A DNA stretch of 64,000 nt from a virus: positions 96,001 through 160,000 of IMG/VR virus record IMGVR_UViG_3300031951_000015; one strand, 5' to 3'. Both the position numbers and the translations under genes were made by a program. The notes beneath the pieces were generated by a model, which was not told the DNA's origin, ran no database searches, and was given only the letters and a program-made list of their open reading frames with translations. This document shows positions 26,888 through 39,013 of the stretch, in pieces (the first letter of the stretch is position 1; every line of letters begins with the position of its first letter).

Positions 26888-27514
26888 TTATTTATTGGTT
26901 TGTTTAGACCATCTTTTATTGGCAGCATCACTTAATTTTTTTCTTGTTTCCTCTGTAATATTGCAAATACGTCCCAATACAAGTCCTTCAGATAGTTTTT
27001 CTTGAACTTTTATTCTCATTATTCTATGATTCTTTTTTGTTTTTGGGTCATACATCCAAACTAAATCCAGTTTTTTAAGTGTTTGTTTTCTTTTTATTGA
27101 ACTTTCTTCTGTAAAAACTTGAAGTGCTCTTGCTCTTCTAATCTTCTCTCTTGCACTTTCATTTAGAAAAAATTTACCTTTTTTAACTTTACTCATTTTT
27201 TCTTTTGTTTCTTGAGATGTAACTGCACCCTCTCTCGTAAATTTAGTCGAAGTTTGTTTTGCCCTATTAGCAAAATGTGAGTTAAGAGCAATATCATAAA
27301 AATTATGCAACTTTATTTCTGCACGAATTGCATCCTTTCTTGTTTTAAACGTTTCGATAATTACTTTTTGAGTGGGATTAAATGTTTTATCGTGAAATGA
27401 TCCAAAATAGTTTATATCTTGTTCCGGTAAGCAATTGCAACTTCTACACCCAATATACCCCCTACCCCACTCTTCATAAGAATAATAGGTATAATGATAC
27501 TTCTTATTAGACAT
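26888..27514 (-). mobile_element. free-standing GIY-YIG-like homing endonuclease with NUMOD3 repeats
   Basis: YTY..GYIG.R..YFGS..AE..N; SQETKEKMS and TEETRKKLS. Confidence 0.75.
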
Positions 27515-27549
27515 TTCTTTACCATTAGGACCGCATATGTATTTATATT

Positions 27550-27600
27550 AAAAAGGAGGGACTTACACCCTCCTCCTGATAAGATTGCGGTCCATCAGGT
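27550..27600 (-). ncRNA. putative small antisense RNA 1
   Basis: Own TAAATA promoter, CCTGAT/ATCAGG hairpin and terminator; loop complementary to the downstream 5' UTR. Confidence 0.5.
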
Positions 27601-27615
27601 ATTAATATTTATCAT

Positions 27616-27645: not shown

Positions 27646-28056
27646 TCATTCACCTGCTGGTGGTTCGGGAGTAAAGAGATCCCAAGCACCTGCTTCTTCA
27701 TCCCAACGATAAAATGAACGTGCTTCAATCTCCGCCTCGGTGAGTGCAGGAGCAGGTCCTACTGGTGATTCCCAATCAGCAGTTTCTTCATTCAGAATCC
27801 ACGAAGCAAATGGTTGTGGTGGAATGAAAGCATCAAGAGTTTCATTGTAAGAGTAACCAATACCTGCATAGCGAACTCTCATATTGTTATTGTATGAGGT
27901 TTGCTTCCAGTTGGTATCAGCACCTAGGAGTTTCTTACAAAATGCAACTCCGATTTCTTCTACTTCTACTCCATTAGAATCAGAAGTATCTTCGTTACTC
28001 ACAACAATGACTTGAGTAACAACGTTGTTTTCATCTAGTTGTGCAAAATGTGCCAT
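27646..28056 (-). CDS. conserved fibre-associated hypothetical protein
   Basis: MAHFAQL..WKQTSYN..YAGIG..FIPPQPFASW. Confidence 0.7.
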   Translation of the reverse strand: MAHFAQLDENNVVTQVIVVSNEDTSDSNGVEVEEIGVAFCKKLLGADTNWKQTSYNNNMRVRYAGIGYSYNETLDAFIPPQPFASWILNEETADWESPVGPAPALTEAEIEARSFYRWDEEAGAWDLFTPEPPAGE

Positions 28057-36839: not shown

Positions 36840-37394
36840 TCAACTATTTATTGCTTGATGGTCTGGAAGTTTAGGAAGTAAATCAAACGCAATGATTGTT
36901 CTTTGTTTTCTCGATTGATTGGGATGAACGAAGTGTAAAGTATAAGAAGGAACAATAAACAGTGTTCCTTCTTTTACATCTTGTGGATGTGCAAGAGTTG
37001 TTGTATCAGTTCTCGGATCTTGCCAAGGTGCTACAAAGCAAGTAGGAGTATGATGTTTCGAATCATACTCCACATAAAGAACACCAGAGAATCCCCAACT
37101 TTTATGGTTGTGAACTGTCTGATGATCTCCTTGTTTATATCTCACTGCCCAACAATCAGTCATACTACAAGTTACTTGTGCTTCCTGACAGAACTCAAAC
37201 AGTTGAGGTCTGATGAGGTCTTGGAAGTAATGTAGGTATGACTTTTTATTTGTTTGGCGATCAGTCTCAAAAGTTTGAAGAGTGGTTCTTACAAACTTTT
37301 GAGAGTTGATTCTGTTGAGAAGTCCACGGCGCTTAAAGTCCCAGTCGTCTATTTGGTATTGGTATGATGGATATTCAAAGAGTGGTGCTTTCAT
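36840..37394 (-). CDS. putative 2OG-Fe(II) oxygenase
   Basis: W..Y..HNH..SGVLY..P..LHFV..R.IIAF. Confidence 0.8.
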   Translation of the reverse strand: MKAPLFEYPSYQYQIDDWDFKRRGLLNRINSQKFVRTTLQTFETDRQTNKKSYLHYFQDLIRPQLFEFCQEAQVTCSMTDCWAVRYKQGDHQTVHNHKSWGFSGVLYVEYDSKHHTPTCFVAPWQDPRTDTTTLAHPQDVKEGTLFIVPSYTLHFVHPNQSRKQRTIIAFDLLPKLPDHQAINS

Positions 37395-38182
37395 ACTGGC
37401 AATCTCCAACCACGATGATGATCTACTTCAAATCTTGATAATCTTTGCATCTGTCTTTTACTCAATCCAAAATCTTTACAATGTTCATCAATATCATCAA
37501 CTTTTACAATATTATTATCTGGCGATAAGAAATAATAAGTTTTCAATCTTGCTTTTCGGCATAACTCCCTTTGCTCATCGCTCATAATCAAGTTTGGTCT
37601 AATCGTATTTGTTATTTTAGCAGTCCAACCTTTATAATGATTTCTCTTTCCCATACAAACATAACACATAGTAGGGTTGTGTAAGTTATGTTCTAAACAA
37701 AAACTTTTCAAACTTTGAGTAATATATTCTTTACCATTTGGATCTGTAATCAAATATTCATAAACAAACTTTGTTTTTCGCATCTTATCAACGTGTTCTT
37801 TTTTGGATTTCACACCACGACACCTATCACCAACAGCATTACCAACTCTTATTTTTAATCCTTCATAAAGACGTGAGTTGCAATAATATTCTTTATCACC
37901 ACTTTTATGATGATTCATTTTCCAAAAAGCGTGAGTCATCTTTATTGTTTTTGGATGCTTTTCTCCATACCTTTTGATAAATGCTTTTTCTAATAGAGAG
38001 TGAGCAATATAATGTTCTCTGGCAGTCAAATATACAATCCTTTTGTTCCCTTCTGTTGTCTGCCCATAAAGAGATCTTGGAAAAACGTGATGTCCTTCCA
38101 CATACATTTTCACATTTCTTTTGTTGTAACCTCTTTTCTCTGCGTTTCGTATAAGGTTACAGTAAGTCCTTAGGTAGTTCAT
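37391..38182 (-). mobile_element. free-standing HNH homing endonuclease
   Basis: EGHHVFP..LTAREHYIAH..NSRLYE plus C-terminal DNA-binding repeats (HYKGW, HHRGW); inserted within the oxygenase operon. Confidence 0.8.
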
Positions 38183-38214
38183 AACTGCTCTTTGGTTGGT
38201 GACGTACTATTTAT

Positions 38215-38272
38215 GCAAGAAAAGGGCACCAGAGCGCCCCATTCTACCTGAAATGTGTCACCAACCCAGGCA
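38215..38272 (-). ncRNA. putative small antisense RNA 2
   Basis: Same architecture as 27550-27600; 10-nt complement to the HNH 5' UTR. Confidence 0.5.
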
Positions 38273-38284
38273 CTTATATTTAGG

Positions 38285-39013
38285 TCACCGGGCACGGTCC
38301 CAGGCGCAATGTGCCCTCTGCCCATCTTGTAACACGTAGTGAAAAAATATTTGATGGTAGTACAACTGTTCTTGATTTTTACCAAATAGTTTTTTACCTT
38401 TTCTATTAAGTCCTGGCATTGGATCACGCCAATGAGGTCTGGAACAACCTTTATAAACCATTCCATCACCAGGTTTCAGAATCACTGAACGATTCTCACC
38501 AGGAACTAATACCTGTGTCTTCTTTTTATCTGCATAAGTATCTGGTGTTTTAATCCAGATCGGCCAGTCAGCATCTTCACCAGTTAGATTAGTGCTGATA
38601 TGAACCGTTACAGAAATCTCACAAGCATCACGATCTGCGTGACGGGTAAGTTCTTGTCCTGGGAAATAATAACGATCATAATAATAGGTATTATAAAGTT
38701 TACGTCCCAATACTTCTTCCAGTTTCATACGAATACCACAATGGATTTGGCGATATTGTGGATGCCAATAACGAGCAAGAGAACCTTCAACTTGCATCTC
38801 AACTTCATGATGGGTGAACTGATCCATCTTTTTACCCCACCAGTTCAGTTGTCCACGCTCTTGTGGAACTGGATGATAGAGTTCCTCAGGATTCCACAAG
38901 TCTTTAATAACTAGATATCCATTCTTTTCAAAGGATTCGTTGTGAGTCCAGGCAGTACCTGTATTCATCCTTTCCTGCATCATCAGTTGCAGTTCTGTCA
39001 TTTGTTCTGCCAT
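38285..39013 (-). CDS. 2OG-Fe(II) oxygenase
   Basis: RHADRDACEISV..GD..Y.G..HWR..QIFFHY. Confidence 0.8.
   Translation of the reverse strand: MAEQMTELQLMMQERMNTGTAWTHNESFEKNGYLVIKDLWNPEELYHPVPQERGQLNWWGKKMDQFTHHEVEMQVEGSLARYWHPQYRQIHCGIRMKLEEVLGRKLYNTYYYDRYYFPGQELTRHADRDACEISVTVHISTNLTGEDADWPIWIKTPDTYADKKKTQVLVPGENRSVILKPGDGMVYKGCSRPHWRDPMPGLNRKGKKLFGKNQEQLYYHQIFFHYVLQDGQRAHCAWDRAR

Follow-up and report, generated by a model that had tools for sequence, protein, structure and literature searches.

The chief selfish elements of T4-like phages are homing endonucleases, whose restraint is known from a few coliphage and Aeromonas-phage cases. For I-TevI, I-TevII, I-TevIII and segB of T4, as well as for mobE of Aeromonas phage Aeh1, a late promoter lies within a hairpin that acts as a translational mask of the endonuclease gene, and in the case of Aeh1 mobE additional layers of control (terminators, processing) are known (PMC2988022). 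Deletion of the I-TevI hairpin had no effect on viability (Edgell et al., PMC2988022). In 2009, Dassa et al. described TATAAATA hairpins that contain two motifs complementary to each other and precede free-standing endonucleases in cyanophage-like metagenomic "fractured gene" loci; as presented in their main text, the hairpin was kept at one locus after loss of the endonuclease, and, with Aeh1 mobE as the analogue, it was discussed as one regulatory hairpin (PMC2677866).

Other compact regulatory elements have been described in T4-like phages and cyanophages. The PeSL cassettes of T4-like phages consist of a terminator stem-loop and an early promoter and were proposed as recombination sites (PMC2839356, PMC4122927), and the 2014 paper on PeSLs makes no mention of cyanophages or late promoters (PMC4122927). 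CfrI of cyanophage S-PM2 is described as a cis-antisense RNA of about 225 nt that runs on the opposite strand across the psbA/F-CphI junction (PMC12197685).

The window analyzed here is a stretch of 64,000 nucleotides from a T4-like cyanophage (positions 96,001 to 160,000 of IMG/VR record IMGVR_UViG_3300031951_000015). On its minus strand, at 27.6 kb, a cassette of about 100 bases runs in the order P1, hairpin 1, G+C-rich hairpin 2 with a run of five T, P2, X′ and the ATG of an endonuclease gene (Table 1), and cassettes of this kind are located ahead of cyanophage homing-endonuclease-like genes. The 5′ arm and the loop of hairpin 1 double as the 5′ strand of a long-range mask. The original prediction, made from the letters of the window, had placed these elements on the minus strand, and every one of its coordinates was correct on re-checking; its reading of the loop 8-mer X as the exact complement of the predicted 5′ end of the nuclease mRNA was confirmed as well.

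Table 1. Positions in the window of the two cassettes, of the gene behind the first and of the upstream terminator
Feature	Position	Strand	Details
Intrinsic terminator of the upstream gene, GAGGGG ttcta CCCCTC + T7	27639-27616 (stem 27639-27623)	-	serves the 136-aa gene 28056..27646
P1, gATAAATA, late-promoter-like	27613-27606 (TAAATA 27611-27606)	-	conserved 5′ edge of the cassette; 6 nt ahead of hairpin 1
Hairpin 1	27599-27575	-	CCTGAT 27599-27594; 13-nt loop GGACCGCAATCTT 27593-27581; ATCAGG 27580-27575
X, 8-mer of the hairpin 1 loop, GGACCGCA	27593-27586	-	exact complement of 27535-27528
Hairpin 2 + T5, nested, intrinsic-terminator-like	27573-27550	-	GGAGGG 27573-27568; 7-nt loop 27567-27561; CCCTCC 27560-27555; T5 27554-27550
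P2, consensus late promoter, TATAAATA	27547-27540	-	predicted start G at 27534, from the T4 rule
X′, loop target, TGCGGTCC	27535-27528	-	at the predicted 5′ end of the late mRNA; 4-base spacer after P2
GGTA at the Shine-Dalgarno position (-9 to -6)	27523-27520	-	pairs with TACC 27601-27598 in the read-through fold
Endonuclease ATG	27514	-	thirteen bases 3′ of X′
208-aa homing-endonuclease-like gene	27514..26888	-	GIY-YIG-like N-terminus, NUMOD3-like motif
Second cassette	38284..38180	-	ccTAAATA 38284-38277; hairpin 1 38270-38247; X = GGTTGGTGAC 38266-38257
Second cassette, 3′ part	about 38240-38180	-	terminator-like hairpin about 38240-38212; CATAAATA 38215-38208; X′ 38203-38194; ATG 38182

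The terminator that precedes P1 is part of the invaded backbone and lies outside the cassette, and the Bellamy homologue of the 136-aa gene is likewise followed by a comparable terminator. A simple terminator scan listed this upstream element, and hairpin 2 was absent from its list; read directly from the letters, hairpin 2 consists of a stem of 6 bp, a loop of 7 nt and T5. A decayed cassette remnant lies upstream of the 136-aa gene (28144-28116, minus strand) and reads AATAAATA, 6 nt and the mini-hairpin TCTGA-cttt-TCAGG, with the loop deleted and hairpin 2 missing. The late promoter of the 136-aa gene (AATAAATA, 28098-28091, minus strand) stands 3′ of this remnant. The equivalent site of L057, a related contig, keeps both hairpins and P1 intact (about 847-910), without a target or an endonuclease. 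The remnant in the window suggests the site of a lost endonuclease.

The 208-aa ORF behind the 27.6-kb cassette matches phrog_314 "homing endonuclease" (E 2.6e-13), with a NUMOD3 match just below the Pfam threshold, and a PDB sequence search with this protein returned no matches. It has homologues in S-PM2 and others; the S-PM2 homologue is without a cassette and overlaps the stop codon of the gene before it. The 263-aa ORF that begins at 38182 is of the HNH type and matches PHROG homing/HNH endonuclease families. A protein-based locus search returned no loci for the HNH nuclease and only three for the GIY-like nuclease. As judged from their matches to PHROG homing/HNH families, the genes behind the cassettes are predicted homing endonucleases of both GIY-YIG-like and HNH-like types. 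In S-SRM01 (L001, NC_070963), the annotated GTG start of the "homing endonuclease" gp297 (2528) lies inside the terminator hairpin, beside an AGGAGG-like arm, and the family alignment moves the start to an ATG downstream of TAGAGTAGAA (2474 vs. the annotated 2528). Such a GTG start within the hairpin is probably a recurrent annotation error due to the Shine-Dalgarno-like hairpin arm.

The same layout had been proposed ahead of the unrelated nuclease at 38182, and it is indeed found there with a different loop/target pair of 10 nt. Scanning of the whole genome (174.7 kb) revealed a third cassette, which lies outside the window and has a pair of 11 nt, and each of the three cassettes has its own loop/target pair. 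When 20000 shuffled leaders were examined for each copy, the complement was obtained by chance in 137 (8 nt at 27.6 kb), 5 (10 nt at 38182) and 1 (11 nt in the third copy). A fourth endonuclease-type gene of the genome (L160; late promoter at genome position 76120, minus strand) has a plain hairpin around its late promoter, without P1, hairpin 1 or terminator: a 12-nt complement, TAAGTCTTGGCG / CGCCAAGACTTA, flanks TATAAATA and ends 2 nt before the ATG.

In the empty sites of Bellamy and S-SM2, the two genes that flank the 38.2-kb insert overlap by ATGA, and the insert sits precisely at their junction. These empty sites contain no promoter and the insert starts two bases before TAAATA, so that P1 belongs to the mobile unit. 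The candidate explanation that P1 is the host's own late promoter is possible at 27.6 kb, according to the Bellamy comparison, and was rejected at 38.2 kb, where the empty site is promoterless. At its other end, the HNH gene recreates the ATGA stop/start overlap with the downstream gene, by which the insert preserves the translational coupling of the invaded operon. The final 30 nt or so of the HNH endonuclease gene resemble the final 30 nt or so of the upstream 242-aa gene (37391-37420 / 38285-38345, minus strand).

Homologous cassettes were collected by two IMG/VR pattern scans, which took hairpin 2 and the P2/Shine-Dalgarno half, respectively, as their anchor, together with a covariance model. 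Since both scans were anchored outside the loop, a match between loop and target was not presupposed. The search yielded 124 cassettes (121 distinct) on uncultured cyanophage contigs and in Synechococcus phage S-SRM01, the sole named or cultured phage found with a cassette. The S-SRM01 cassette is about 83% identical to that of the window, and its loop and target are wholly different yet mutually complementary. In an Rfam scan of the region, the best matches fell far below the gathering scores. The family comprises about 41 loop/target specificity classes and precedes at least 10 N-terminal families of endonucleases, GIY-YIG-like and HNH-like included. More than one endonuclease family is paired with the same X class in 14 out of 39 classes, and X′ therefore does not track the enzyme. 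The proposal that the module travels with nucleases is supported.

Single contigs carry up to six or more cassettes. On contig L068 (IMGVR_UViG_3300007735_000887), at least six are found within 14 kb in a dense array of endonuclease units. Many cassettes begin a few bases past the 3′ end of a tRNA gene (e.g., on contigs L005, L021, L024, L025, L033 and L047), and tRNA gene ends seem to be a favored insertion point. The 3′ ends of the endonuclease units are heterogeneous, for which reason late promoters on both flanks of the unit were rejected; boxes resembling sigma-70 promoters are confined to the 3′ ends of some of the endonuclease genes. Three individual copies deserve mention. The cassette at 12251-12350 of L016 has the loop of one class and the target of another, with 3 mismatches, and looks recombinant; at 796-905 of L050 pairing is kept solely by G-U wobbles, plus one A-C mismatch; and at 8876-8998 of L008 both P2 and the target have decayed and the ORF is broken. 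The cassettes resemble PeSLs in being short conserved composite regulatory motifs that are reused with variable genes at many loci. Their promoters, in contrast, are of the late type instead of the early sigma-70 type, and the cited accounts of PeSLs describe no self-complementary loop/leader logic.

The long-range helix is the best supported feature of the family. In the minimum-free-energy fold of the read-through RNA of the window copy, X pairs with X′ and UACC with GGUA, and z-scores of the read-through folds lie between -3.6 and -5.2 for three cassettes. In most family members the extension on the Shine-Dalgarno side is continuous with X:X′; the helix of S-SRM01 measures 17 bp and spans the Shine-Dalgarno sequence, and that of the 38.2-kb copy extends to the AUG. 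The mask of the 27.6-kb copy is among the weakest of the family (8 bp, a 4×4 internal loop and 4 bp, -16.5 kcal/mol), and its Shine-Dalgarno sequence is covered by the 4-bp GGUA:UACC segment alone. Because the complementarity continues into the Shine-Dalgarno region, transcripts entering from upstream would mask their own ribosome site. Between the two strands of the mask lies the late promoter TATAAATA, a motif that is nearly invariant in the family and whose predicted start is at X′; the leader that begins at P2 is unstructured (-4 kcal/mol, z 0.1).

Covariation of loop and target across homologous cassettes had been put forward as a check of the original prediction, and it is massive in the X/X′ columns. 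In an unfitted MAFFT alignment of 37 cassettes, 8 of the 16 helix pairs had changed on both sides, with a covariation score of 0.315 compared to at most 0.045 in slid controls. Covariation is seen at all 22 pairs of the model-fitted alignment (121 distinct cassettes), in which 97.7% of the cells are paired; the unfitted result is the safer one, as a model-fitted alignment is biased towards structure. Energies of arm/leader duplexes average -23.6 kcal/mol for cognate and -10.5 kcal/mol for non-cognate combinations. One position of the helix is dominated by G-U (83 cells in the 121-cassette alignment) and some variants stay paired through wobbles alone, which points to pairing in the sense-strand RNA and not in DNA. 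The helix also takes in one U immediately ahead of each predicted start, that of P1 and that of P2, and both bases are conserved and covarying. As these bases fall outside the predicted transcripts and would be carried only by RNA begun further upstream, they indicate selection on pairing in cis, with the proviso that the starts follow from the T4 rule and may be off by a base.

The element had originally been set apart from the cis hairpins of T4. This distinction is not borne out, given that the complementarity spans the Shine-Dalgarno region and that the cis helix is the minimum-free-energy structure of the read-through RNA. A helix with conserved, covarying pairs, some of them probably positioned just ahead of where the P1 and P2 transcripts begin, makes the cassette first of all a T4-type cis mask, and masking in cis very probably operates. 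To this extent the logic is known: it is that of T4 I-TevI, segB and Aeh1 mobE, and it was already noted in the form of hairpins in cyanophage-like loci by Dassa et al. in 2009. Judged by their description, those hairpins probably belong to the same family as the cassette. Common to the masks of T4 and Aeh1 and to the cassette are a helix over the ribosome-binding site of upstream transcripts, a late promoter positioned so as to leave late transcripts without the inhibitory strand, and a homing endonuclease as the target gene.

Beyond this design, three features of the family are new here, namely a selected local hairpin 1, a terminator-like hairpin nested in the mask, and an insert-borne TAAATA core at fixed spacing. 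As to the first, positions 1, 4 and 5 of the 5′ arm of hairpin 1 change jointly with their local partner in the 3′ arm and with their partner on the Shine-Dalgarno side. In the triplets (5′ arm/local/Shine-Dalgarno side), C/G/G becomes U/A/A, G/C/U becomes A/U/U, and A/U/U becomes either U/A/A or G/U/C. Such three-way covariation implies that the local hairpin is also under selection, and a 5′ arm with two maintained alternative partners implies a two-state RNA. Hairpin 2 occurs in 64 distinct sequences among 105 cassettes, always as a G+C-rich stem followed by a T run, which is usually 4-5 nt long and shortened to 3 nt in 21 of the 105. Free sequence combined with a constant stem and T run suggests that hairpin 2 behaves like an intrinsic terminator.

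The TAAATA core of P1 is present in 118 of the 121 distinct cassettes, preceded by A or C, and its spacing to hairpin 1 is 6 nt in 114 of them. Immediately upstream of the core the information content is close to zero, and the first two promoter positions of P1 are systematically unlike those of the consensus P2. Genome-wide, NATAAATA occurs 58 times on the coding strand vs. 8 times on the other and NCTAAATA 18 vs. 3 times, in most cases just upstream of ORFs. The promoter-like and terminator-like elements that had been proposed to bracket a candidate RNA of about 50 nt are thus conserved in the family. Unlike the T4 and Aeh1 masks, the cassette has its masking strand in a selected local hairpin with the variable complement in the loop, a complete intrinsic-terminator-like hairpin nested between the strands, and a second late-promoter core at a fixed distance of 6 nt before the masking strand. 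It also differs from them in being a single sequence family, in which about 41 loop/target pairs are interchangeable and which is common to at least 10 families of endonucleases. The loci of Dassa et al. share the ecological and phage setting of the cassette, whereas their main text does not describe an upstream promoter core, a nested terminator, an alternative hairpin, covariation classes or a small RNA (PMC2677866).

We consider it likely that the cassette is a portable two-state RNA leader of free-standing homing endonuclease genes in T4-like cyanophages. This reading is based on how the cassette is built, on covariation in each of the two alternative helices, on the conserved P1 and on the module's portability; the transcription starts, termination, translational repression and trans action are what we infer. 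In the closed state, which would act in cis, transcripts begun upstream of P2 would pair UAC, the 5′ arm of hairpin 1 and loop X with X′ and the Shine-Dalgarno region. This pairing, which reaches the AUG in some copies, would block translation of the nuclease, and the nested terminator (hairpin 2 with its U-run) would stop most of these transcripts. In the open state, transcripts from P2 would begin at X′, lack the masking strand and be translatable late. The sub-consensus P1 at the 5′ edge, together with the terminator, would most likely yield an RNA of about 50 nt in which hairpin 1, showing X, is followed by hairpin 2. By pairing in trans with transcripts from P2, this RNA could dampen synthesis of the nuclease.

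The strongest alternative, which we hold to be rather unlikely, is a T4-type translational mask with a terminator and nothing more. P1 would then be non-working or inconsequential, hairpin 1 would serve folding kinetics or the 3′-end stability of the upstream mRNA, and there would be no functional small RNA. Everything that a cis mask requires is present and covarying, and the conserved pairs just outside the predicted P1 and P2 transcripts fit this explanation. The same can be said of the endonuclease at 76120 in the same genome, whose simple hairpin and late promoter do without P1 or terminator, of the orphan 5′ halves that lack a cognate target and are mostly decayed, and of the X/X′ columns, whose variability is not in excess. 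What it leaves unexplained is the retention of TAAATA at fixed spacing in nearly all cassettes while the first two promoter positions and the neighboring bases drift, the import of a promoter into a promoterless site, and those compensatory changes in the 3′ arm of hairpin 1 that are useful to the local stem alone. P1 and the 3′ arm are selected though needless for masking in cis, and an RNA of about 50 nt would explain both.

The two-state reading accordingly includes a discrete RNA, made likely by the selected hairpin 1, the nested terminator and the fixed, insert-borne P1 core; on balance, these features favor the view that the RNA from P1 to the terminator is made. Whether it would act in trans is a separate matter. 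Pairing with the P2 leader in trans is thermodynamically favorable (ddG -7.0 and -11.9 kcal/mol). A search of 1.6 Mb of related DNA turned up only orphan 5′ halves that have no cognate target and are mostly decayed, and no intact copy standing alone with its target at a distance. Cassettes on one contig shared a loop class in none of 17 pairs, which agrees with the 0.6 expected by chance. The X/X′ columns are about as variable as neutral spacers and not more so, which means that nothing in them demands specificity in trans. A trans function of the small RNA is conceivable, and we regard it as tentative.

The c4 RNA of phages P1 and P7 and the CI RNA of P4 are small structured RNAs encoded on the same strand upstream of their target, and their loops pair with the ribosome-binding region of the downstream gene. 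They are processed from a longer transcript and set lysogenic immunity; from one related element to another, their loop and target vary in concert, and this creates specificity classes. The cassette shares with them the same-strand leader position and the co-varying complementarity to the target, and it differs in that its putative RNA would have its own promoter and terminator, in a lytic phage, with a selfish nuclease gene as target. The antisense nature of c4, which regulates ant, has been documented (PMC8201110). CfrI is likewise linked to a cyanophage homing endonuclease gene (F-CphI), but it is described as an opposite-strand RNA of about 225 nt, in contrast to the candidate same-strand cassette RNA of about 50 nt. 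A genuine same-strand antisense RNA with about 41 exchangeable loop addresses, acting in trans on the late nuclease mRNA and possibly on the matching cassette of a co-infecting phage, may exist, a possibility that we regard as a minority expectation.

A stronger version of this idea makes the trans antisense RNA the key product, an antitoxin-like silencer of the nuclease for which pairing in cis is incidental. The conservation of P1, hairpin 1 and terminator, the display of X in a loop, the favorable trans duplex and the many loop/target classes agree with it. It is nevertheless improbable, as the cis helix is the minimum-free-energy structure and includes bases probably missing from the P1 RNA or the P2 mRNA, the function of promoter and terminator is putative, and both RNAs would appear at the same late time. 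There is also no sign of host toxicity, of RNAs that differ in stability or of addiction, by which type I toxin-antitoxin systems are defined, and the label "antitoxin" is an analogy only.

A small RNA that acts positively is very improbable. In this case hairpin 1 would stay closed and its loop X would kiss the 5′ end of the late mRNA and shield it from 5′-end-dependent decay, in line with the position of X′ exactly at the predicted 5′ end of the P2 transcript and with the selection of hairpin 1 as a stable stem; the conserved complementarity of the 5′ arm to the Shine-Dalgarno region, however, suits a repressor and would be useless to a protector. Finally, the absence of any RNA function can be dismissed with near certainty: although a single 8-mer match can arise by chance, as the shuffled leaders illustrate, and I-TevI binds an operator over its own late promoter (PMC2988022), chance complements, operator or nuclease target-site mimicry and a DNA-level inverted repeat or cruciform are rejected by the covariation of about 41 different complementary pairs in 121 cassettes, by the G-U pairs, which are the commonest at one position and would be A-C mismatches on the other strand, and by the X classes shared among endonuclease families.

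With the two-state leader as the likely reading, one compact RNA module that is absent from Rfam serves at least 10 endonuclease families in many uncultured cyanophages, with textbook-quality covariation for two mutually exclusive folds. Its 41 or so matched loop/target pairs form a natural library for testing the T4 masking model. In practical terms, the cassette corrects gene starts where a GTG has been misplaced inside the terminator hairpin, and it flags endonuclease insertions and their remnants. It also raises the checkable possibility of a phage-encoded same-strand antisense RNA. If such an RNA, with its loop addresses, does act in trans, it would add an RNA-based layer of specificity or immunity to the competition between homing endonucleases and phage genomes.
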